DNA from: Clostridiales bacterium
Lineage (GTDB): Bacteria > Bacillota > Clostridia > Christensenellales > CAG-138
Direction: 5' to 3'
DNA length: 64,000 bases
NCBI GenBank assembly: GCA_004556165.1
Contig: SFIR01000006.1
Coordinates: 854 to 64,853, forward strand
Below the pieces are notes generated by a model that searched no databases, was not told the origin of the DNA, and saw only the letters and a program-made list of their open reading frames with translations. Below are positions 37,954-46,638 of this stretch, piece by piece (position 1 is the first letter of the stretch; each line of letters opens with the position of its first letter). Both the position numbers and the translations under genes were made by a program.

Positions 37954-38613
37954 ATGCAGATTAAATGGTATGGACATTCATGTTTTCTTCTGACCGATTC
38001 GAACGGAGTCAGAATACTTACCGACCCGTTCTCTCCCAAGACCATGTTTGAGCTTCCGGCAATAGAGGCGGATGCTGTCACGGTCAGTCACGATCATGAT
38101 GACCATAATTATATCAGTGCGGTCGTCGGCAGCACTAAACTGATACGCACCGCAGATGAGTTTGAGGTCGGAGGAGTCAAGATAAAGGGTTTCATGACCT
38201 ATCATGACACCATGAAGGGCACTCTCCGCGGCACCAATATCATGTACAGATTTGAGATGGACGGTATGAAGGTACTGCATTGCGGCGACCTCGGCGAGCA
38301 TCTTGACGATGAGGCAATAGAAAAAATCGGCAAGATAGATATTCTGCTTGTACCCATAGGGGCAATCTATACAATAGACGACCTTGAAGCAAGGGAGCTT
38401 GCAAACAGGCTTCATGCAAGGGTCGTTATCCCCATGCATTATAGGAATCCTAAGCTCAGCTTCGAGCTTTGTCCGCTCGAACCGTTTGTTGAGGCAGTCC
38501 GCCACTGCGAGGTCTACAAGATGGGTGAATGCCTTATCAATATCATGCCCGAATCCCTCGGCAAGGACAGGGTGATTATTCCGAGACCGTTTAACCCGGC
38601 GGTGGACGAATAA
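37954..38613 (+). CDS. MBL-fold metal-dependent hydrolase (UPF0173-like)
   Basis: MQIKWYGHSCFLLTDSNGVRILTDP...VSHDHDDH...HCGDLGH pattern. SD AGGAGG. Confidence 0.8.
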   Translation: MQIKWYGHSCFLLTDSNGVRILTDPFSPKTMFELPAIEADAVTVSHDHDDHNYISAVVGSTKLIRTADEFEVGGVKIKGFMTYHDTMKGTLRGTNIMYRFEMDGMKVLHCGDLGEHLDDEAIEKIGKIDILLVPIGAIYTIDDLEARELANRLHARVVIPMHYRNPKLSFELCPLEPFVEAVRHCEVYKMGECLINIMPESLGKDRVIIPRPFNPAVDE

Positions 38614-38679
38614 AAAATCCGGCATAAACCGGATAGATTGACGCTAATGACGTATCGGAGCCTCGCTTCGATACGTTTT

Positions 38680-39222
38680 TCAGTTCCTGTTCACAAGCTT
38701 TCGGCGGAGCTCCTTATCAAAGACACGAGCGAGAAAATCATAGAGCAGGATGAATGCGCTGAAAGCGGCTTCGGCTATCAGGACTATTATCCAGTATTCG
38801 ACAGCATACGAATCAATCAGCGCTATTATATCCATATTCATAAGGAACAATGCGACGAGCAGCAGTATCCCGGCGAGAATATTGCAGCCTATCAGCTTCA
38901 TGAGGAACGCAAAGAGCTTGGACGGTATCTTATCGCATATGAATTTGATGAAGCAGTATGAACCGAATACGGAAGCATACGCGGCACAGAAGCTTTTATC
39001 GGGGATGATAAGAAAGCTCAACAGAGCGGTGGCGGCATAGCTCAAAAGAGCATAGAAGAAGCCCTTTTTCTCGTTAAGCGGTATCCAGAGCAAAAGCGAT
39101 GTTAGGAAAAGAAGCGCAAGGCGCGAGGTGTTTAGAATTGATGCGGCATACAGAAACAGCACGCTGAGCGCAGTGCTCATCGCAGCAAGTGCAAGCTTTG
39201 TTGTATTGGATACGCTCCTCAT
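38680..39222 (-). CDS. small polytopic membrane protein (~180 aa, 5 TM), third gene of the DUF5685/J-protein operon
   Basis: ATG 39222 with SD GAGGA overlapping the J-protein stop. The upstream part of the 255-aa ORF overlaps the J-protein gene in another frame. The TKLALAAMSTALSVLFLY start resembles ECF-S/Gx-type small transporters (weak). Confidence 0.6.
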   Translation of the reverse strand: MRSVSNTTKLALAAMSTALSVLFLYAASILNTSRLALLFLTSLLLWIPLNEKKGFFYALLSYAATALLSFLIIPDKSFCAAYASVFGSYCFIKFICDKIPSKLFAFLMKLIGCNILAGILLLVALFLMNMDIIALIDSYAVEYWIIVLIAEAAFSAFILLYDFLARVFDKELRRKLVNRN

Positions 39223-39232
39223 ACCGTCATCC

Positions 39233-39889
39233 TCAGCAGCAGCGGCAAAGGTCTCCGCCCATGCATTCGCAGCAGGTATCCGCGCACCAGAGCGTGGAGC
39301 AGATATTGCAGGCGGTATCGCAGGAATCGGAGCTTGACGTATTTGTGCCGGCGGAGGAATGGTATGACCTCGAACCCCTCCGCATGAGCACATCGTAGGA
39401 TTGGCGGTATTCGGAATTACTGGGGTCCATGCGGCAGGCGGTCTCAAGGCTCTGGCGTGCTGACATGTAGTCGCCGCGTCTGAACTGGGTTATGCCGTAG
39501 AGATAGTACCATTCCGCGGTTCGGTTGGACATGGCGTTGAGCATTGCAAGCGCTTCCTGAAGCTTATTCTGATTGAGAAGCTCGCGAATGCGGTTGTACT
39601 CATTGGCATACGCCCCTGAATAGCTGCCGGAAAAACCGCCGGAGTAGCTGCGTGACGAGCCGCCGGAATAGCTGCCCGAGCTTCCGGAGGAATACGAGCC
39701 TTCCTTGCGCATCTTAGTGATGGTATCATAGGCTTCGTTGATCTCCTTCATCTTCTCGTCGGCGAGATCATGCAGGGGACTGTCGGTATACCTGTCCGGA
39801 TGATACTTTTTGACAAGCTCGAGATAGGCAGCGCGGATCTCCTTGTCCGTTGCCGATTCTGATACTCCAAGCACTTCGTAAGGGTTCAT
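39233..39889 (-). CDS. J-domain protein with G/S/Y-rich linker, TPR-like hairpin and Cys-rich C-terminal tail
   Basis: MNPYEVLGVSESATDKEIRAAYLELVKKYHPDR (HPD motif), a (SGSYSGG)n linker, and the tail CDTACNICSTLWCADTCCECMGGDLCRCC. Confidence 0.85.
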   Translation of the reverse strand: MNPYEVLGVSESATDKEIRAAYLELVKKYHPDRYTDSPLHDLADEKMKEINEAYDTITKMRKEGSYSSGSSGSYSGGSSRSYSGGFSGSYSGAYANEYNRIRELLNQNKLQEALAMLNAMSNRTAEWYYLYGITQFRRGDYMSARQSLETACRMDPSNSEYRQSYDVLMRRGSRSYHSSAGTNTSSSDSCDTACNICSTLWCADTCCECMGGDLCRCC

Positions 39890-40740
39890 TTTTTGGGTGC
39901 ATCCTTTCGCAAAGATTCGGTTCTGCCAATACAGTTATCCAATGCGGCGAAAAGCCCCTCGGTAATGATATTGGCAGTGATCGCGTTATCATGCTTGGTA
40001 TTCAGCAGATCATACGCGGAAACAGCATTGTTTATAGAAATATTTATAAGAAATTCGGCGTCCTTCCCGACCGTGCCGGATAGAAGAAAGGGATTGTACA
40101 GCCCGTGCTTTTTATCCTTCTCCATATCGTCAAAAGCGTCGATGAGGTATATGAATCTGCCGATATTAAGCCCAAGGTCTCGGAGAATAAGTGAAGTTTC
40201 GGCCCCAAAGTCCTTATAGGCAAGCAGCACCTCGGCAAGCAGCTCGCCGAAAGCATTGGCAGGTATATCGGGGTCGGACTCCCTGCGAGCTTCGATCTCC
40301 GCAAGCTCCCGGAGCTTCTTTTTCAGTATCGAATCAACCGCAGGGAAGTTCTTTTTCGCCTTTTTGTAGGCAGGAAGCAGCGGAGGCTTTGCGGCAGCCC
40401 GAAGCTTTTTACCATCCGCAATGTCATCATCCAGCTTGTATTTTGCAAGAAGCACGCACACTGCGGCGGCGTAACCGAGAGCCGGGGAAGCTTCCTTGAT
40501 AATAGGCTTCTTTTTTCCGAGCGGCTTGAAGGGGCAGTGCGCAATCTCCGAGCTTACGCTTTCATCTTCAAGGGAACCAAGCATTATCGCGAGGAAGGTA
40601 CAGTCGTAGCTTAGGCACGCTCTGGCGGCAAGCCCGTATTCGCGGCCGAGCCGAGCGCAGAGTCCGCAGTACCAAGCATCATATCTCAGCTTTTCACGCA
40701 CCCGGAGCTCGGGGATATTGGGCCTGATGTATCCGAACAA
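39886..40740 (-). CDS. DUF5685-like protein with squalene/phytoene-synthase-like Asp-rich motifs
   Basis: TTG 40740 follows GGAGGG by 4 nt and gives the (M)FGYIRPN start typical of this family. ATG 40812 lies upstream of the predicted TSS. Motifs KLDDDIADG and RDLGLNIGRFIYLIDAFDDMEKDKKHGLYNP. ATGA overlap with the J-protein start. Confidence 0.7.
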   Translation of the reverse strand: MFGYIRPNIPELRVREKLRYDAWYCGLCARLGREYGLAARACLSYDCTFLAIMLGSLEDESVSSEIAHCPFKPLGKKKPIIKEASPALGYAAAVCVLLAKYKLDDDIADGKKLRAAAKPPLLPAYKKAKKNFPAVDSILKKKLRELAEIEARRESDPDIPANAFGELLAEVLLAYKDFGAETSLILRDLGLNIGRFIYLIDAFDDMEKDKKHGLYNPFLLSGTVGKDAEFLINISINNAVSAYDLLNTKHDNAITANIITEGLFAALDNCIGRTESLRKDAPKK

Positions 40741-40794
40741 TTTTCCCTCCGAACAAGAAGAAATGCTTTGCGGAGAATTTCCGTATTCAATATT

Positions 40795-40823
40795 ATTATA
40801 GACTATTTGCACATCTTTTTCAA
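40795..40823 (-). promoter_or_regulatory. promoter of the DUF5685/J-protein operon
   Basis: Minus strand reads TTGAAA-17 nt-TATAAT, ~50 nt upstream of TTG 40740. Confidence 0.5.
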
Positions 40824-40991: not shown

Positions 40992-42125
40992 ATGAAAAAA
41001 TTGCTGGCAGTATTGCTTGCAGCACTCATGATCGTTCCTTTCCTCACCGCTTGCGGTGCAAAGGAATATGAGATTGCCCTCATTACCGATAAGGGCAACA
41101 TCGATGACAAGAGCTTCAATCAGGGCGCTTGGGAGGGCGTCGTTGCATATGCAGAAGCTAACAGCATCTCCCATAAGTACTATAAGCCCGAAGATGCAAC
41201 CGATGAAGCATACCTCGCAGCTATCGACCTCGCAGTCGAGTCCGGCGCAAAGGTTGTTGTATGCCCCGGCTTCCTCTTTGAACCGTCCGTATACGAGGCA
41301 CAGACCAAGTATCCCGAGGTAAAGTTCATCATTCTTGACGGCGCACCCCGCACCGCTGACTATTCCGACGCTAAAACCGCTGAAAACACCGCTTCCATCA
41401 AGTATGCTGAGGAGCAGTCCGGTTATCTTGTAGGTTATGCAGCAGTTAAGGATGGCTACCGTGCTCTCGGCTTCATGGGCGGCATGGCAGTGCCCGCTGT
41501 TCAGGCATTCGGTTACGGCTATCTCCAGGGCATCGAAGCAGCAGCTGCTGAGCTCGGCCTTGCAGCAGGCGACATCACCGTTAAGTATCACTACACCGGA
41601 AACTTCGATGAGTCTGATATCAATAAGGCAACCGCAGCAGCAATGTATGAATCCGGCATCGAAGTTATCTTCGCATGCGGCGGCAGCGTAGGTAAGTCCG
41701 TTATGTCCGCAGCAAATGAAGCAGGCAAGAAGGTCATCGGCGTAGACGTTGACCAGAGGTATGAGAGCGAGACCGTCATCACCTCCGCAACCAAGGGCCT
41801 TGCAGCTTCCGTACAGGCAGTCCTTAAGTCCATCTATGAGACCAATGACTTCGCTACCTATGCAGGAAAGACCACCTACTTCAACGCTGCAAACAACGGC
41901 GTAGGTCTTCCCACTACCGTTATCGGCGATGAGAACGGCAATGCATTCGATAGGTTCAACACCTTCACCGTAGAAGCTTACAATGAGATCTTTGCAAAGC
42001 TCGCTGATGGCAGCGTCAGCCCCGTCAGGGAGCTCCAGATTGCTAATGCAGAAGGTTATGCAACCGCTGAAGAGCTCACCAACGGCCTCGGCCTCACCAT
42101 TATTGCAGTTGAGTGCGTTCAGTAA
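40992..42125 (+). CDS. BMP-family (PnrA/Med-like) nucleoside ABC substrate-binding lipoprotein
   Basis: SD AGGAGG, MKKLLAVLLAALMIVPFLTACGAKE lipobox, ALITDKGNIDDKSFNQGAWEG signature of basic membrane protein SBPs. Confidence 0.9.
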   Translation: MKKLLAVLLAALMIVPFLTACGAKEYEIALITDKGNIDDKSFNQGAWEGVVAYAEANSISHKYYKPEDATDEAYLAAIDLAVESGAKVVVCPGFLFEPSVYEAQTKYPEVKFIILDGAPRTADYSDAKTAENTASIKYAEEQSGYLVGYAAVKDGYRALGFMGGMAVPAVQAFGYGYLQGIEAAAAELGLAAGDITVKYHYTGNFDESDINKATAAAMYESGIEVIFACGGSVGKSVMSAANEAGKKVIGVDVDQRYESETVITSATKGLAASVQAVLKSIYETNDFATYAGKTTYFNAANNGVGLPTTVIGDENGNAFDRFNTFTVEAYNEIFAKLADGSVSPVRELQIANAEGYATAEELTNGLGLTIIAVECVQ

Positions 42126-42153
42126 TTGAATTGATCCGTTAAGTCGGAAAACA

Positions 42154-42175
42154 GGGGAAGGGGCGACCCTTCCCC
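42154..42175 (+). promoter_or_regulatory. GNRA-capped stem-loop just after the BMP SBP gene
   Basis: GGGGAAGGG-GCGA-CCCTTCCCC. Confidence 0.5.
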
Positions 42176-42253
42176 AAAGCTATTATATCGGTTCCGATTT
42201 CCTATGCCCATCGGAAGAAATGGAGCACACCTCGGGTATATGCGCCATGGTTT

Positions 42254-42276
42254 GCTTTCGCTTGCGAAAGCTTTTT
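42254..42276 (+). terminator. intra-operon terminator/attenuator between the SBP and ATPase genes
   Basis: GCTTTCGC-TT-GCGAAAGC followed by TTTTT. Confidence 0.55.
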
Positions 42277-42365
42277 GCTTAGAATAAACTCATTTTATAG
42301 CTCAATGCATGATGCTTCGTGCCGTAAGCTATAAAATGCAGAAGTGCAGAAAAGGAAGGTGCTTA

Positions 42366-43913
42366 GTGGAAAATTATGTAATTGAAATGGTCCACATCAC
42401 AAAGAGATTCCCGGGTATCGTCGCAAATGATGATATCACGCTTAACTTAAAGCGCGGTGAGATTCATGCGCTGCTCGGTGAAAACGGTGCGGGCAAGAGT
42501 ACCCTCATGAGCGTGCTGTTCGGCCTTTACAACCCTGAAGAGGGCGAGATAAGGATGAACGGGCAGCCCGTCACTATCCATGACCCGAATGACGCTACTG
42601 CATTGGGTATAGGTATGGTGCATCAGCACTTCAAACTGGTGGAATGCTTCACCGTGCTGCAAAACATTATTCTCGGAGTTGAACCGAATAAGTCGGGCTT
42701 CCTCAGTATGGGCGAAGCGAGAAAAAAGGTCGTTGAACTGAGCGAAAAATACGGCCTTCAGATCGATCCCGATGCGGTTATCGAGGATATCACAGTCGGC
42801 ATGCAGCAGCGTACCGAGATACTGAAGATGCTTTATCGTGACAACGACATACTCATTTTTGATGAGCCGACCGCTGTTCTTACGCCGCAGGAGATCACCG
42901 AGCTGATGGATATTATCCGCTCATTCGCAAAGGAAGGAAAATCCATCCTCTTTATTTCTCATAAACTGAATGAGATTATGCAGGTGGCAGACCGCTGCAC
43001 CGTGCTTCGCAAGGGAAAGTGCGTCGGCACTGTCAACGTTTGCGATACCACTCCCGAGGAGCTGAGCCGCATGATGGTCGGCAGGGATGTCCAGCTCAAG
43101 GTCAGCAAGGACGAGGCGCATCCGGGCGATTCGGTGCTTTCGGTTCGAGACCTCAAGGTACCTTCGAAGGTGCATAAGGGTAAGAATGCGGTAAACGGAG
43201 TTTCCTTCGATGTCAGAGAAGGCGAGATAGTCTGTATCGCAGGCATTGACGGCAACGGCCAGTCGGAGCTTGTGTCGGCGATTACGGGTCTGGACAAGCC
43301 CAACGGCGGAAGCATTACCCTCGGAGGCACAAACATCACCCGTGCTCCGATAAGAAAGCGCAGCAAGCTCGGTATGAGCCATATCCCGGAGGATAGGCAT
43401 AAGCACGGTCTGGTGCTTGATTTTAATCTTGCAAACAATATGGTGCTTCAGCGTTACTGGGAGCCCGAGTTCATGCGCTTCGGTTTCATTAAGAAAGCAC
43501 CCATAAGAAAGTATTCGGATGAGCTGATAGAGCGTTTCGATGTGCGCAGCGGCGAGGGCTCCGATTCCATCGTGCGCAGCATGTCCGGCGGCAACCAGCA
43601 GAAGGCCATAGTCGCAAGGGAAATGGATAGGGAGCATAAGCTTCTTGTGGCTGTCCAGCCCACGCGTGGCCTCGATGTCGGCGCAATTGAATATATTCAC
43701 AAATGTATCGTTCGTGAGCGTGACGAGGGCAGAGCGGTTCTGCTCGTATCCTTCGAGCTTGACGAGGTAATGAACCTTGCCGACAGAATACTTGTAATGT
43801 ACGGCGGCGAGATCGTCGGAGAGCTTGACCCAAAGAAGACCGATGTTGAAGAGGTCGGTCTGTACATGGCAGGCAACAAGCGCAATACCGGCAGCAAGGA
43901 GGCACAGGCATGA
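42366..43913 (+). CDS. ABC transporter ATP-binding protein, duplicated ATPase (nucleoside/sugar type)
   Basis: Two NBDs: GENGAGKST ... FDEPTAVL and a second with MSGGNQQKAIVARE. GTG 42366 lies 6 nt after AAGGAAGGTG. Confidence 0.9.
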   Translation: MENYVIEMVHITKRFPGIVANDDITLNLKRGEIHALLGENGAGKSTLMSVLFGLYNPEEGEIRMNGQPVTIHDPNDATALGIGMVHQHFKLVECFTVLQNIILGVEPNKSGFLSMGEARKKVVELSEKYGLQIDPDAVIEDITVGMQQRTEILKMLYRDNDILIFDEPTAVLTPQEITELMDIIRSFAKEGKSILFISHKLNEIMQVADRCTVLRKGKCVGTVNVCDTTPEELSRMMVGRDVQLKVSKDEAHPGDSVLSVRDLKVPSKVHKGKNAVNGVSFDVREGEIVCIAGIDGNGQSELVSAITGLDKPNGGSITLGGTNITRAPIRKRSKLGMSHIPEDRHKHGLVLDFNLANNMVLQRYWEPEFMRFGFIKKAPIRKYSDELIERFDVRSGEGSDSIVRSMSGGNQQKAIVAREMDREHKLLVAVQPTRGLDVGAIEYIHKCIVRERDEGRAVLLVSFELDEVMNLADRILVMYGGEIVGELDPKKTDVEEVGLYMAGNKRNTGSKEAQA

Positions 43914-45088
43914 GCTTTTGGAACAAAAACGTTAAACCTCTTTTGATGAGCATACTGCCATCGGTAGTTGCAATCCTGATCGGCTTGCTATTCGGCCTCT
44001 TGGTCATGATCTTTGCTTCGCCGGGAGATGCTCCGATGGGCTTCTATACGGTGCTTACGAGAGGCATTTCAAAATTCAGTGATGTGCTCTATTATGCGAC
44101 ACCGATAATTATGACAGGTCTTTCCGTCGGCTTTGCTTACAGAATGGGTCTTTTCAATATCGGAGCATCGGGCCAGTTCACGATGGGAATATTTGCGGCT
44201 CTGCTCGTATCCTTCTTTTTACCGCTGAAATCTCCTGCAAGCTGGATCGTTGCATGCGTTGCGGCGATCGCTGCCGGGGCGATTTGGGGATCAATCCCGG
44301 GCTTTTTCAAGGCCCTGCTCAATATTAACGAGGTAATCACCTCCATCATGTTCAATTATATCGGCATGTATGTAGTTGATTATCTTATAAGCAACAGCTC
44401 CACCATGTATTTTGCAACAAAGGCGAGGACTAATTACATCTCCGCCGAGGCGCAGCTGCCCGCTTTGTGGTCGGGCACAAATCTGAATGTCGGGATCATC
44501 ATTGCTGTTGTGCTCGCCGTGATTCTTTTCGTTGTTCTGTTCTACACCACCTTCGGCTATGAGCTTCGGGCAACGGGATTCAATAAGGACGCTGCGAAGT
44601 ATGCAGGCATGAGCAGCAAGCGCAATATCATAATCACCATGGCTATCGCAGGCGCTCTTGCGGGTCTCGGCGGTGCGCTGTGCATATTGGCACCCTCCAC
44701 CGTTGTAGGTTCGAGCGTCACATATGAGCCGATAAATGTCATAAGGAATGAGGGCTTCAACGGAATCGCAGTAGCTCTTCTCGGCTGCTCGCATCCGATA
44801 GGCATCGTATTCTCTGCAATCTTTGTCTCATACATCCAGAGGGGCGGCACCGGCGCAGTTGCGTATAAACCCGAGATAATAGATGTTGTGCTCGCGTTCA
44901 TCATCTATTTCTCCGCATTTGCAATGGTAGTCAGAGAGATAGTTTCGGGGAAACGCAAAAAGAAGAAAAGCGCTCCGGCACCCGGTGCGGTGATAGATGC
45001 CGTACCTCCCGGACCTAACGATACCGCCATGCAGGATCAAACAGGTACAGGATTGATGCCTGAAGCTGAGGAAAGGGGCGAAGAATAA
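43910..45088 (+). CDS. ABC transporter permease (BMP/nucleoside system)
   Basis: 392 aa, ~9 TMs, overlapping start with the ATPase stop. Charged ~50-aa C-terminal tail. Confidence 0.85.
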   Translation: MSFWNKNVKPLLMSILPSVVAILIGLLFGLLVMIFASPGDAPMGFYTVLTRGISKFSDVLYYATPIIMTGLSVGFAYRMGLFNIGASGQFTMGIFAALLVSFFLPLKSPASWIVACVAAIAAGAIWGSIPGFFKALLNINEVITSIMFNYIGMYVVDYLISNSSTMYFATKARTNYISAEAQLPALWSGTNLNVGIIIAVVLAVILFVVLFYTTFGYELRATGFNKDAAKYAGMSSKRNIIITMAIAGALAGLGGALCILAPSTVVGSSVTYEPINVIRNEGFNGIAVALLGCSHPIGIVFSAIFVSYIQRGGTGAVAYKPEIIDVVLAFIIYFSAFAMVVREIVSGKRKKKKSAPAPGAVIDAVPPGPNDTAMQDQTGTGLMPEAEERGEE

Positions 45089-46050
45089 TGAACGTTGTTT
45101 ATTTCCTTGTACAGAATACTCTTCCCGTCGCAATACCCCTGCTTCTGACAGCACTCGGCGGAATGTTTTCGGAGCGCAGCGGCGTTATTAACCTCGCACT
45201 TGAGGGAATCATGCTGTTCGGCGCATTCTTCGGCTGCCTTACAACCTATTATATCGGATCGGCAATGAATCCCCAGCTGGTTCTCATCATTGCCCTCTTA
45301 GTTGCAGCGCTCGCCGGCGCAATCTATTCGCTTGCACTGTCGTTTGCCGCCGTGAATATGAAAGCGGATCAGACGATCGTGGGAACGGCAATGAATATGC
45401 TCGTTCCCGCAATGGTTCTGCTCATAAGCAAAATGTTCTTCATGAGCGACGGCATAACTACATCGGTAAACTTATATATTCAGAAGATACCGCTTCTCGG
45501 TGATATTCCCGTTATCGGTCAGCTCTTCTTCCAAAAGACATATCTGACCGTCTATATCGGCATCGCTGTTCTGGTCATTGCCCAGATCTTGCTTTATAAG
45601 ACCAAATTCGGTCTCAGGCTCCGTGCCTGCGGTGAACATCCTCAGGCAGCGGATTCAGTCGGCATCAATGTATATAGGATGCGTTACGCAGGCGTAACGA
45701 TCTCGGGCATACTCGGAGGCCTCGGCGGATTCGCATACGCTGTCGGCATCATGGATGGCAACTGCAACGGCCATACGGGTGTGGCAGGCTTCGGCTTCCT
45801 CGCTCTCGCGGTCATGATATTCGGCCAGTGGAAACCCATAAGGATTTTGCTCGCCGCGCTGTTCTTCGCTTTCCTCAGGCAGCTTTCGAATTCCGTTATG
45901 CTGATTCCGTTCCTGTACAATCTCAATATCCCGAAGGTCGTCTATAGCATTCTGCCCTATGTCGCGACAATGGTTGTCCTTGCATTCACCTCCAAGAAGT
46001 CAAGAGCACCCAAGGCGGAGGGCATTCCGTACGACAAGGGAAGCAGATAA
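45088..46050 (+). CDS. ABC transporter permease (BMP/nucleoside system)
   Basis: 320 aa polytopic protein. TAATG overlap with the previous permease. Confidence 0.85.
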   Translation: MNVVYFLVQNTLPVAIPLLLTALGGMFSERSGVINLALEGIMLFGAFFGCLTTYYIGSAMNPQLVLIIALLVAALAGAIYSLALSFAAVNMKADQTIVGTAMNMLVPAMVLLISKMFFMSDGITTSVNLYIQKIPLLGDIPVIGQLFFQKTYLTVYIGIAVLVIAQILLYKTKFGLRLRACGEHPQAADSVGINVYRMRYAGVTISGILGGLGGFAYAVGIMDGNCNGHTGVAGFGFLALAVMIFGQWKPIRILLAALFFAFLRQLSNSVMLIPFLYNLNIPKVVYSILPYVATMVVLAFTSKKSRAPKAEGIPYDKGSR

Positions 46051-46068
46051 TCGGGAAGGGCAATACTT

Positions 46069-46638
46069 ATGGCAAAGCTGTATTTCCGCTACGGCGCGAT
46101 GAGTTCATCCAAGACCGCTCAGGCGATCATGGTCAAGTATAATTACGGAGAGCGCGGCCAGAAGGCGATACTGACAAAGCCCTCCATTGACACGCGTGAC
46201 GGCGTACACAGCGTTAAGTCGCGCTGCGGACTCGAGGATCAATGCGTGCTCTTCGATGAGCTGCCCATGGAAGCGATAAAGCGTGGGGAATATAACTGCG
46301 TTATCGTAGATGAAGCGCAGTTCCTCAGCCGCGACCAGGTTATGGTTCTCGTGGATTTAGTTGACAACTACGGCGTACCTGTGATATGCTATGGACTACG
46401 GACTGATTTTCAGGGGAATTTCTTTGAAGGCAGTCACTATCTTATGGCTTTTGCCGACACAATCGAGGAGATAAAAACCATCTGCTGGTGCGGCAGAAAA
46501 GCGATAATGAATGCAAGGCTCGACGGTAAGGGCGGTATAACCAAGGTCGGCGAGCAGGTCGTCCTCGGTGCGGACGATAAATACATCGGCCTCTGCCGCA
46601 AGCACTGGGCGGAGGGAAAGATCAGCAAGGACGGGTGA
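46069..46638 (+). CDS. tdk: thymidine kinase
   Basis: MAKLYFRYGAMSSSKT P-loop, VDEAQF, and a C-terminal zinc ribbon CWCGRKA...CRKHW. Confidence 0.9.
   Translation: MAKLYFRYGAMSSSKTAQAIMVKYNYGERGQKAILTKPSIDTRDGVHSVKSRCGLEDQCVLFDELPMEAIKRGEYNCVIVDEAQFLSRDQVMVLVDLVDNYGVPVICYGLRTDFQGNFFEGSHYLMAFADTIEEIKTICWCGRKAIMNARLDGKGGITKVGEQVVLGADDKYIGLCRKHWAEGKISKDG

Follow-up and report, generated by a model that had tools for sequence, protein, structure and literature searches.

ComQ, PalQ and StheQ, which are trans-IDS-like enzymes, act on the protein encoded by the gene next to their own and attach a prenyl group to a residue at or near its C-terminus (PMC13290415; PMC10853753; bioRxiv 10.64898/2026.08.29.745113; PMC4008528). 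Trp is the target of every characterised trans-IDS-like peptide prenyltransferase (PMC13290415), and ComQ is recognised by Pfam PF00348 (PMC4008528). The DUF5685 protein encoded in the window (i.e., the whole stretch of 64 kb that was analysed), together with the J/TPR/Cys-string protein encoded next to it, resembles the pairs ComQ/ComX, PalQ/PalX and StheQ/StheX in several respects: in a predicted all-alpha trans-prenyl-synthase fold with the first Asp-rich motif, and in an adjacent gene for a putative substrate on the same strand, sometimes overlapping, such that the ComQ-type combination of a trans-IDS fold and a neighbouring candidate partner is found here as well. The Cys tail of the partner is a candidate for the modified residue at or near the substrate C-terminus, and an acceptor other than IPP is proposed for DUF5685. 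The differences are as follows: DUF5685 matches PF18937 only, whereas ComQ matches PF00348; the known members prenylate Trp, whereas a Trp is present within the last 30 residues of only 14 of the 73 partners, i.e., a conserved acceptor Trp is lacking there; the substrates of the known members are short secreted pheromones or RiPP precursors, whereas the partner of DUF5685 is a cytoplasmic J/TPR protein of 200 aa; DUF5685 possesses an additional N-terminal three-Cys module and keeps the full second Asp motif; and, unlike ComQ/ComX, the DUF5685 module is not accompanied by ComP/ComA genes. That DUF5685 and its partner form a ComQ/ComX-like enzyme-substrate pair in which the Cys string is alkylated is, by analogy, possible, and it is the reading that we tentatively prefer. 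The operon, widespread in Clostridia and unstudied, may provide bacteria with a new means of anchoring a protein by a lipid.

Concerning lipidated proteins of eukaryotes, J proteins of type I (Ydj1/DNAJA) are farnesylated and the CC ends of Rab proteins are geranylgeranylated by protein prenyltransferases, which are alpha-alpha barrel heterodimers unrelated in fold. The partner of DUF5685 shares with them, as an analogy only, the C-terminal Cys on a J protein, the CC end and possibly a metal-activated thiol. The cysteine string protein (DNAJC5) likewise combines an N-terminal J domain with a dense Cys string, which anchors it to membranes; however, it is eukaryotic, its string is internal and S-palmitoylated by DHHC enzymes, and homology does not extend beyond the J domain. 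In proteobacteria, DjlA is a membrane-anchored J protein. If the tail of the partner were prenylated, bacteria would own a route to protein S-prenylation derived from another fold than that of the eukaryotic enzymes, Firmicutes would possess a membrane-anchored J protein in place of DjlA, and this lipid-anchored protein would be the counterpart in prokaryotes of farnesylated Ydj1 or the cysteine string protein.

In the window, a near-consensus promoter and a terminator bracket three genes on the minus strand (Table 1). The TTG start codon of the DUF5685 gene is preceded by GGAGGG, its stop codon shares an ATGA with the start of the J-protein gene, and the GAGGA motif of the membrane-protein gene overlaps the stop codon of the latter. 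The first-pass annotation had described this unit with its TTGAAA-17-TATAAT promoter, and its coordinates, overlaps and SD motifs all agreed with the window on rechecking. The same applies to the DUF5685 motifs that it had listed (KLDDDIADG at aa 102-110, RDLGLNIGRFIYLIDAFDDMEKDKKHGLYNP at aa 187-217, and an N-terminal Cys cluster with WYCGLC at aa 23, YDC at aa 45 and HCP at aa 68) and to the features of the J protein (HPD, an S/G/Y linker at aa 63-96, a TPR-like hairpin, exactly 10 Cys in the last 29 residues, and the CRCC end). The length of 284 aa is also that annotated by NCBI for the DUF5685 protein; a longer open reading frame of 308 aa starts at GTG 40812 within the promoter and is thus regarded as an over-call. 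An Rfam scan of the window returned no RNA family.

Table 1. Features of the DUF5685 operon, with positions in the window
Feature	Position	Strand	Remarks
Promoter TTGAAA-17-TATAAT, sigma-70-type	40795..40823	-	11/12 consensus positions; ~55 nt upstream of TTG start
DUF5685 gene, 284 aa	39886..40740	-	Pfam PF18937; predicted remote trans-IDS-like isoprenoid-synthase-fold protein
C25-G-L-C28, part of invariant three-Cys site	40657..40668	-	with C69 at 40534-40536 and D46
First Asp-rich motif D105-D106-x-x-D109	40414..40428	-	C-terminal end of predicted helix D; aligns to FARM DDxx(xx)D of trans-IDS
Second Asp-rich motif D201-A-x-(D)-D205-x-x-x-D209	40114..40140	-	end of predicted helix H
J/TPR/Cys-string protein gene, 218 aa	39233..39889	-	PF00226; ATGA overlap with DUF5685
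J domain, aa 1-65, HPD at aa 30-32	39695..39889	-	PF00226, E=1.1e-16
TPR-like helical hairpin, aa 97-165	39395..39601	-	TPR matches aa 98-163, below Pfam cut-offs but concordant
Cys-string tail, aa 190-218, 10 Cys, ends CRCC	39236..39322	-	54/73 tails of partners end in CC
Membrane protein gene, polytopic, 180 aa	38680..39222	-	weakly ECF-S-component-like
Terminator-like hairpin and T-run closing operon	38617..38634	-	—

The match to PF18937 (DUF5685) is full-length (residues 1-266, E=1e-72, 245 bits against a Pfam cut-off of 26.7). The family comprises 6,488 clusters at 50% identity and is common in gut and rumen Clostridia. In the literature, "DUF5685" appears in one in-silico paper without functional content and "PF18937" in none, and surveys and reviews of J proteins do not mention the architecture of the partner. 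Conservation was counted in 190 DUF5685 homologues of 30-85% identity. The first-pass annotation had made its reading depend on the invariance of both Asp motifs, which was borne out with one exception: D105 and D109 are conserved in 99%, D201 and D205 in 100% and D209 in 98% of these sequences, whereas D106 is D in 57% and N in 23%. N216 is conserved in 100%, and D105, D109, D201, D205, D209 and N216 are also retained in the clade whose partners are devoid of a J domain. C25, C28 and C69 (100%) and D46 (98%) are conserved to the same degree; this three-Cys site is situated in the family-specific N-terminal 83 aa, which hhalign could not align to trans-IDS and in which a GGKRxR IPP motif was not seen by eye. 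At the sequence level, searches of Pfam, NCBIfam and PDB sequences yielded no match of DUF5685 to any characterised enzyme family, and the family profile matched in PDB only designed helical repeats at E>0.1.

The AF2 model of DUF5685 (pLDDT 94.5, pTM 0.91) is in accordance with the terpenoid-synthase fold that had been suggested from the motifs: the best 50 Foldseek matches in PDB are without exception isoprenoid enzymes, and almost every one has the trans-prenyl synthase fold. MoeN5, a prenyltransferase, is the top match (TM 0.53-0.60, prob 1.0), and the other leading matches are octaprenyl synthase (OPPS), hexaprenyl synthase (HexPPS) and the Trp-prenyltransferase Ord1; for this group, to which GGPP synthases also belong, the profile alignment has both Asp motifs in register with DUF5685. 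The matches share 10-17% identity with the model at TM 0.5-0.6, and each score is modest by itself (best Foldseek E-value 1.6e-3, hhalign probability <5%). With single sequences (E. coli IspA or Pantoea CrtB), hhalign detected nothing, so that family alignments built from plasmid records were used instead, and for trans-IDS as well as for PSY only the local mode was informative, not the global one. Against trans-IDS, DUF5685 reached a score of 26.0 (E 0.0086). With the alignment reversed, the score was 13.8, and 40 block shuffles gave 13.2 ± 2.0 (maximum 19.0); trans-IDS versus PSY, used as positive control, reached a value comparable to that of DUF5685 (30.1). One single alignment, of DUF5685 84-209 to CrtE 73-238, places D105/D106/D109 on the FARM and D201/D205 on the SARM DDxxD. 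The model contains three helices between the two motif-bearing helices, and the motifs are separated by around 96 residues, compared to around 140 in IspA. DUF5685 differs from trans-prenyl synthases in the part that corresponds to helices A-C, which is replaced. According to the model, DUF5685 thus belongs, as a remote member, to the superfamily with the isoprenoid (terpenoid) synthase alpha-fold, and in the alignments both of its Asp-rich motifs appear in register with the Mg/diphosphate motifs of this superfamily, by which a large family without assigned function would be placed in the prenyl-synthase superfamily with its catalytic motifs intact.

The first-pass annotation had compared the two motifs to those of the head-to-head squalene/phytoene synthases (PF00494), which belong to the same superfamily. 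The part of this likeness that concerns the second motif stands insofar as the LGxxxQ...D...D...G.xYxP match, as given there, is the best local alignment of DUF5685 with PSY (DUF5685 157-219 to CrtB 135-191), in which D201/D205 align to the second PSY motif. The alignment is weak (score 20.1, E 0.065), however, with an indel of one residue in the G..Y.P spacing, trans-IDS scores higher, DUF5685 does not match PF00494 at E<=1, and no SQS, PSY or CrtM chain is found among the best 50 fold matches. PF00348 is not matched at E<=1 either, which places DUF5685 outside trans-IDS proper. By fold and profile, its nearest relatives are the head-to-tail trans-prenyl synthases and the trans-IDS-like prenyltransferases, not the head-to-head SQS/PSY enzymes. 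DUF5685 might also be a decayed synthase that acts as a binding protein in a non-enzymatic pair, with acidic residues serving protein-protein or cation binding only, and both the missing IPP motif and the lack of sequence-level matches to characterised enzyme families would fit this. We consider it very improbable: the Asp-rich motifs are normally lost in decayed synthase subunits, such as the small subunits of heteromeric hexaprenyl and heptaprenyl synthases, whereas in DUF5685 five Asp and one Asn are 98-100% conserved in catalytic register among 190 sequences of at least 30% identity.

Gene order was counted in two independent sets of 80 loci each, one from genomes and one from metagenomes. 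In the former, the Cys-tail gene is situated immediately downstream of DUF5685 in 79 of 80 loci, mostly with a 4-bp overlap; in the latter this is the case in 69 of 76 evaluable loci, two further loci contain one inserted gene, and in three more the partner is a TPR and Cys-string protein without J domain. Taken together, around 150 of the 156 evaluable loci have a Cys-tail gene behind DUF5685, i.e., the two genes are coupled and their pairing is obligate. With this constant partner identified, the "domain of unknown function" becomes part of an enzyme-substrate hypothesis that can be tested directly. The order of all three genes, for which recurrence across Clostridia had been expected, was found again in both sets. 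Beyond the triad there are no conserved neighbours: MATE-type genes adjoin the module in only 5 of 160 loci, no isoprenoid pathway gene is situated near it in the first 80 loci, and tblastn with E. coli IspA and Pantoea CrtB detected no relative in the window or in the loci L001-L162. An apparent fusion of DUF5685 and the J protein in one locus (L061) was rejected, as the "fusion" spans a masked stretch of N.

With its J domain and HPD motif, the J protein of the window belongs to the class C J-domain proteins. It is not a canonical class A DnaJ, as TIGR02349 is matched with 62.8 bits against a cut-off of 377 and by the J domain only, and CxxCxGxG repeats are absent from the Cys tail. The TPR-like hairpin exhibits conserved AEWYYLYG and P-N-x-EY columns. 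The last 30 aa of the partners contain a median of 9 Cys, compared to 1 elsewhere; the core pattern of the tail is C-x2-C-x2-L-x-C-x-D/N-x-C-C, with L and then W/I/M as conserved hydrophobic positions within the string, and 54 of 73 tails end in CC. The HPD motif is kept in 63 of 73 orthologues and lost in 10, in which the tail is intact, and in three loci (L142, L152 and L157) the J domain is deleted, whereas the TPR part is retained and the Cys string expanded. As the tail persists after loss of HPD or of the J domain, the tail and not the chaperone activity is the core partner of DUF5685. The designation "chaperone cofactor" given to this protein at first thus lays too much weight on the J domain.

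A run of Cys of this density (8-11 in around 28 aa, with CC, CxC and CxxC spacings) would be just as usual in a metal-thiolate or Fe-S site. Similar to HscB/IscU, a metallothionein-like or Fe-S tail might load or repair a metal site formed by the three Cys of DUF5685 via J domain and DnaK, or the pair might be a redox or metal sensor. This seems quite unlikely to us, even though the Cys spacings, the three invariant Cys and the Asp of DUF5685, the anaerobic life of the clostridial hosts and a weak NCBIfam similarity of the partner to HscB (via the J domain alone) would agree with it: since the tail is kept or expanded where HPD or J domain is gone, DnaK-driven transfer cannot be the core function; hydrophobic positions in the string and its strict C-terminal placement are unusual for metal clusters; and the invariance of the Asp motifs, which points to DUF5685 as a diphosphate-utilising enzyme, is left unexplained. 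If the tail binds metal, the module would still represent a specialised J protein of a new kind, linked to an enzyme of the isoprenoid fold.

Concerning the preferred enzyme-substrate pair, fold, motif register, conservation, pairing, tail retention and the dedication of the membrane protein were computed here, and from them we infer a donor, an acceptor, a chemistry, a role of the three-Cys site and a membrane destination. DUF5685 would be a soluble Mg2+-dependent enzyme derived from trans-prenyl diphosphate synthases, whose two Asp-rich motifs bind an allylic prenyl diphosphate. The IPP site would have been lost, with the module of three invariant Cys, probably a metal site, in its place, and the prenyl group would be moved to the C-terminal Cys string of the partner instead of to IPP; the TPR hairpin may be the docking element for DUF5685. 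The thioether-lipidated tail would keep the partner at the membrane, at or in the S-component-like third protein, and in most lineages the J domain on the tail protein would bring DnaK to that site. Thiol-alkylating enzymes such as protein farnesyltransferase, MetH and BHMT use a Zn site with Cys ligands; the three-Cys site of DUF5685 may, however, be purely structural. Alkylation is favoured by the conservation of the tail at the extreme C-terminus with its frequent CC ends, by the constant pairing, and by the retention of the residues in catalytic register. As all characterised trans-IDS-like peptide prenyltransferases target Trp, which is rare in these tails, Cys alkylation would be unprecedented for this fold. 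Further points against this reading are the modest scores of the fold and profile comparisons, the lack of isoprenoid pathway genes near the module in the first 80 loci and of IspA or CrtB relatives in the window and in L001-L162, and a Cys density that would suit a metal site equally well. If true, DUF5685 would be the first Cys-directed trans-IDS-like prenyltransferase and the first case of native bacterial cytoplasmic protein prenylation, and such an enzyme would be a useful tool for protein lipidation, the known ones being limited to Trp. Lipid anchoring of the partner, as had been suggested in the first-pass annotation, is plausible and is sharpened by the ComQ/PalQ precedent. The entire system, in which an enzyme derived from trans-prenyl synthases with a Cys3 metal site would S-prenylate the string and yield a lipid-anchored J protein by which DnaK is drawn to the membrane across thousands of lineages of Clostridia, appears doubtful as a whole.

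The 180-aa membrane protein has no match in Pfam or NCBIfam. Instead of the clean five-TM layout initially assigned to it, its AF2 model (pLDDT 88.5) exhibits about six helices and a short one. Its best and only fold resemblance in PDB is to ECF S components of the RibU type, similar in size and helical layout, with weak scores (Foldseek E 0.5, TM 0.5, prob 0.89); EcfT and EcfA genes are absent among the conserved neighbours of the module. A CAAX-processing enzyme (Rce1/CPBP, PF02517; ICMT, PF04140) was rejected, as neither family is matched at E<=1. One source names a homologue of the membrane protein DUF2232. The gene adjoins the module in 52 of 80 and 51 of 80 loci of the two sets and is lacking from roughly one quarter to one third of the loci, among them all those of the Christensenellaceae type that are devoid of it (L016-L054). 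Four of four distant homologues that were looked up starting from the membrane protein are situated behind DUF5685-DnaJ, i.e., the membrane protein is dedicated to this module.

This dedication and the resemblance to small-molecule-binding S components would also suit a DUF5685 that synthesises or modifies a small molecule, be it a membrane isoprenoid or another diphosphate-activated compound, which the membrane protein binds, with the TPR/Cys-string protein as a non-substrate subunit, scaffold or holdase. The isoprenoid fold with its invariant Asp motifs agrees with this, MoeN5, the best structural neighbour, acts on a lipid-linked small molecule, and parallels exist in OR-PSY and J20-DXS, in which Cys-rich and J proteins control isoprenoid enzymes (the plant OR protein stabilises phytoene synthase), and in the non-catalytic subunits of heteromeric prenyl synthases. 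However, such a function is unlikely: it leaves unexplained why the Cys string at the extreme C-terminus, CC-ended in most partners, is their most conserved part; the membrane protein, absent from so many loci, cannot be essential to the chemistry; and its S-component match is weak and unaccompanied by adjacent ECF T or A genes.

Concerning the partner tails, an extension of the form CEC.GGDLI..CC is confined to loci in which the membrane protein is adjacent (41/41) and occurs in none of the 22 loci without it; these loci represent few clades, and the link between tail extension and membrane protein is no more than suggestive.

The minus-strand segment 38617-40823 constitutes, in the window sequence, a single compact operon from a promoter to a terminator-like hairpin. 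Its three genes encode a DUF5685 protein (Pfam PF18937, E=1e-72), a protein with a J domain (E=1.1e-16) and TPR matches under threshold, and a membrane protein without a Pfam match; an NCBIfam search of the three gave nothing further. Public records (uncultured Eubacteriales/Clostridiales MAGs) name them 'DUF5685 family protein', 'DnaJ domain-containing protein' and 'hypothetical protein'. When rechecked on the window, the motifs quoted in the first-pass annotation all lie at the residue numbers given there, and the J-protein tail indeed contains exactly 10 Cys among the last 29 residues. Concerning the start of DUF5685, many database entries (e.g., the cluster representative P0001) begin at GTG 40812 (308 aa), which falls within the -35/-10 promoter; the TTG of the NCBI call is likely the true start.

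Features of the operon and its surroundings (window positions)
Feature	Position	Strand	Remarks
Promoter TTGAAA-17-TATAAT	40823-40795	-	11/12 consensus positions match
DUF5685 gene	39886-40740	-	TTG start behind GGAGGG; 284 aa
J-protein gene	39233-39889	-	ATG overlaps DUF5685 stop (ATGA); 218 aa
Membrane protein gene	38680-39222	-	GAGGA overlaps J stop; 180 aa
Hairpin, 13-bp stem	38649-38677		directly after membrane-protein stop codon
Terminator-like hairpin and T-run	38634-38617	-	
MBL-fold gene	37954-38613	+	convergent to the operon
Nucleoside-salvage cluster	40992-46638		divergent from the operon

The neighbours (MBL-fold hydrolase, PnrA-type ABC transporter, thymidine kinase) are ordinary and unrelated. 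The 13-bp-stem hairpin is situated between the convergent MBL-fold gene and the operon, and the two hairpins together could form a bidirectional terminator. On the other side, genes for a nucleoside ABC transporter of the PnrA/Bmp type, namely a binding protein, a double ATPase and two permeases, precede thymidine kinase; together they form an ordinary cluster for nucleoside salvage, whose association with the module is not conserved. An Rfam scan of the window gave no match.

An AlphaFold2 model of DUF5685, built from a 44-sequence alignment (pLDDT 94.5, pTM 0.91), was compared with the PDB, and isoprenoid enzymes account for 50/50 among the matches listed, nearly all of them all-alpha prenyl synthases or prenyltransferases. 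MoeN5 prenyltransferase ranks first (E 1.6e-3, TM 0.53-0.57), followed by octaprenyl, hexaprenyl, solanesyl, GGPP and FPP synthases and by the Trp-prenyltransferase Ord1; the scores of this predicted fold are singly modest, yet the list is unanimous. In the model, each Asp motif closes a long helix (86-108 and 180-204) at its C-terminal end, and three helices lie between the two, from which we infer the helix order D-E-F-G-H of trans-prenyl synthases.

Since a profile search of PDB sequences with DUF5685 found nothing and single IspA or CrtB sequences gave no signal in hhalign, family profiles were made from annotated plasmid records, comprising 10 trans-isoprenyl diphosphate synthases (trans-IDS, including CrtE, IspA and IspB) and 10 squalene/phytoene synthases (SQS/PSY, including CrtB, HpnC and HpnD), and compared with an alignment of 190 DUF5685 sequences. 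Against trans-IDS, a single local alignment (DUF5685 84-209 to CrtE 73-238) reached a score of 26.0 (E 0.0086), compared with 13.8 for the reversed control and 13.2 ± 2.0 (max 19.0) for 40 block-shuffles; because the positive control, trans-IDS against PSY as established superfamily members, scored only 30.1 at this profile size, the signal is of the expected order. In the same alignment, D105-D106-x-x-D109 falls on the first Asp-rich motif and L-G-R-x-I-Y-L-I-D201-A-x-x-D205 on the second, L-G-x-A-F-Q-x-x-D-D-x-x-D. By fold and motif register, DUF5685 thus belongs to the isoprenoid-synthase superfamily, as the first-pass annotation had proposed; its assignment to an SQS/PSY-like sub-family did not hold, as the resemblance to SQS/PSY is weaker (20.1, E 0.065; DUF5685 157-219 to CrtB 135-191) and the protein falls into neither PF00348 nor PF00494 (SQS/PSY). 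This alignment, the best local one against SQS/PSY, is the one proposed there for the second PSY motif. At 50% identity (E<=1e-3) the family falls into 6,488 clusters, and every one of the best 150 is 256-353 aa long with a single domain; no paper found discusses the function of the family. A subset (P0140, P0151, P0153, P0222, P0231, P0241, P0246-P0248, P0253) ends in a recurring motif, (D/N/H/E)GS(I/L) or ESI, absent from the window protein.

Among the 190 homologues (30-85% identity), Y24, C25, C28, C69, G194, Y198, D201, D205 and N216 are 100% conserved, and D46, D105, D109, E150 and D209 98-99%, such that both Asp motifs noted earlier are retained throughout this set. Synthase subunits that have decayed to a non-catalytic state normally do not keep these Asp residues, so their invariance argues for a working diphosphate/Mg site, and it speaks against a non-enzymatic pair of DUF5685 and its partner, which we regard as very improbable. 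The N-terminal 83 residues gave no alignment to trans-IDS, and no GGKRxR IPP-binding motif was seen in them by eye; instead, they hold the invariant three-Cys (+Asp) site (C25, C28 and C69, with D46), which suggests an acceptor other than IPP. Sequence and model accordingly predict that DUF5685 is an isoprenoid-fold enzyme that uses a diphosphate, lacks an IPP site and carries this additional Cys3 site.

The expected synteny with the J gene was borne out in both sets of loci. In 79/80 genome loci (31-60% identity; Christensenellales, Oscillospirales, Acutalibacteraceae, Faecalispora and others) a J-domain gene lies directly 3' of DUF5685, with a 4-bp overlap in most; in the remaining locus the contig ends within DUF5685. 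Tractable hosts that have the module include C. difficile R20291, Caproiciproducens and Faecalispora. Among 80 metagenome loci obtained via a divergent query, 76 were evaluable downstream: the J gene is adjacent in 69 and follows one inserted MATE gene in 2, a J-less partner is present in 3, and no partner is found nearby in 2. A 493-aa DUF5685-J fusion (L061, 4974-6455) is an artefact, its frame running through masked N (XXXXXX) at the gene junction.

Among J-domain proteins, the one in the window falls into class C. The constant partner of DUF5685 is the TPR and Cys-string module. The last 30 residues contain a median of 9 Cys (vs 1 in the remainder), with the core pattern C-x2-C-x2-L-x-C-x-(D/N)-x-C-C and a CC terminus in 54/73 tails. 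HPD is lost in 10/73 partners (one Acutalibacteraceae clade and L063), whose tails are among the best conserved, and the J-less partners (L142, L152, L157; 142-150 aa) combine a TPR hairpin with an expanded string (…CCCCCGDDCCSDLCTLYICDSCCECFGGDLCTCF); in these loci the membrane protein gene comes next. J function is therefore dispensable, at least twice, the tail never, and the weight formerly placed on the J domain was excessive. This dispensability also weakens the reading of the tail as a metal or Fe-S binder serving the Cys3 site, which appears rather unlikely. The tail is unmentioned in the J-protein literature checked.

The third gene likewise proved part of the triad, being adjacent in 52/80 genome and 51/80 metagenome loci; it is missing from Christensenellaceae-type loci, where tails are shorter. 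Its family exceeds 1,000 members and lacks a Pfam model. Look-ups that started from the membrane protein placed 4/4 distant members (18-26% identity) behind DUF5685-DnaJ, so the protein is dedicated to the module. The only fold resemblance of its AF2 model (pLDDT 88.5) is a weak one to ECF S components (E 0.5, TM 0.5). Besides the triad, no other conserved genes surround the module, and tblastn with IspA and CrtB found no prenyl/phytoene synthase relative in the window or in loci L001-L162.

Translation of DUF5685 is coupled to that of a protein for which the C-terminal Cys string is indispensable. In the best reading, which we hold only tentatively, DUF5685 would alkylate this string with a prenyl group, and the lipidated tail would tether the protein, in most cases with a J domain and thereby DnaK, to the membrane or to the product of the third gene. 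Zn activates a thiol in farnesyltransferase, MetH and BHMT, and the Cys3 site might act similarly. By analogy, the lipidation idea of the first-pass annotation finds a concrete precedent in ComQ/ComX, PalQ/PalX and StheQ/StheX, in which the protein encoded by the adjacent gene is prenylated, at its C-terminus or on a residue close by, by a trans-IDS-like enzyme (PMC13290415; PMC10853753; bioRxiv 10.64898/2026.08.29.745113; PMC4008528); enzyme fold and an adjacent partner gene are shared. However, every enzyme of this type characterised so far is specific for Trp (PMC13290415), and Trp, the defining acceptor of the ComQ family, occurs in only 14/73 tails. A small-molecule isoprenoid enzyme, for which the partner would serve as scaffold or holdase, is conceivable but seems unlikely.

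Concerning further genes near the module, a MATE-family transporter gene separates DUF5685 from the J gene in L150 (2638-4062) and L158 (3713-5170) and follows DUF5685, with the partner missing, in L130 (3928-5283) and L134 (3874-5223); in L081 a MATE/Polysacc_synt/MurJ-type gene precedes the module. With only 5/160 loci overall, this association is probably incidental. In 22 of the first 80 loci (L045, 4045-4500, and 21 others of Christensenellaceae type), a ~150-aa protein is encoded ~0.5-1 kb upstream of DUF5685 that has a hydrophobic stretch at its N-terminus and a zinc ribbon at its C-terminus (CPQC...CTNC; Pfam Zn_ribbon just below cut-off); it is clade-specific and turned up once among the false positives of the membrane-protein profile. 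Four loci of Oscillospiraceae type (L177-L180) were retrieved by way of the membrane protein; downstream, each of them has an RpiR-type regulator, an HI0933-like flavoprotein and cmk, with plsC next in 3/4. Three of them (L177 995-1231, L178 859-1095, L180 642-878, all minus strand; absent in L179) carry divergently upstream of DUF5685 a 78-aa ORF without Pfam match.
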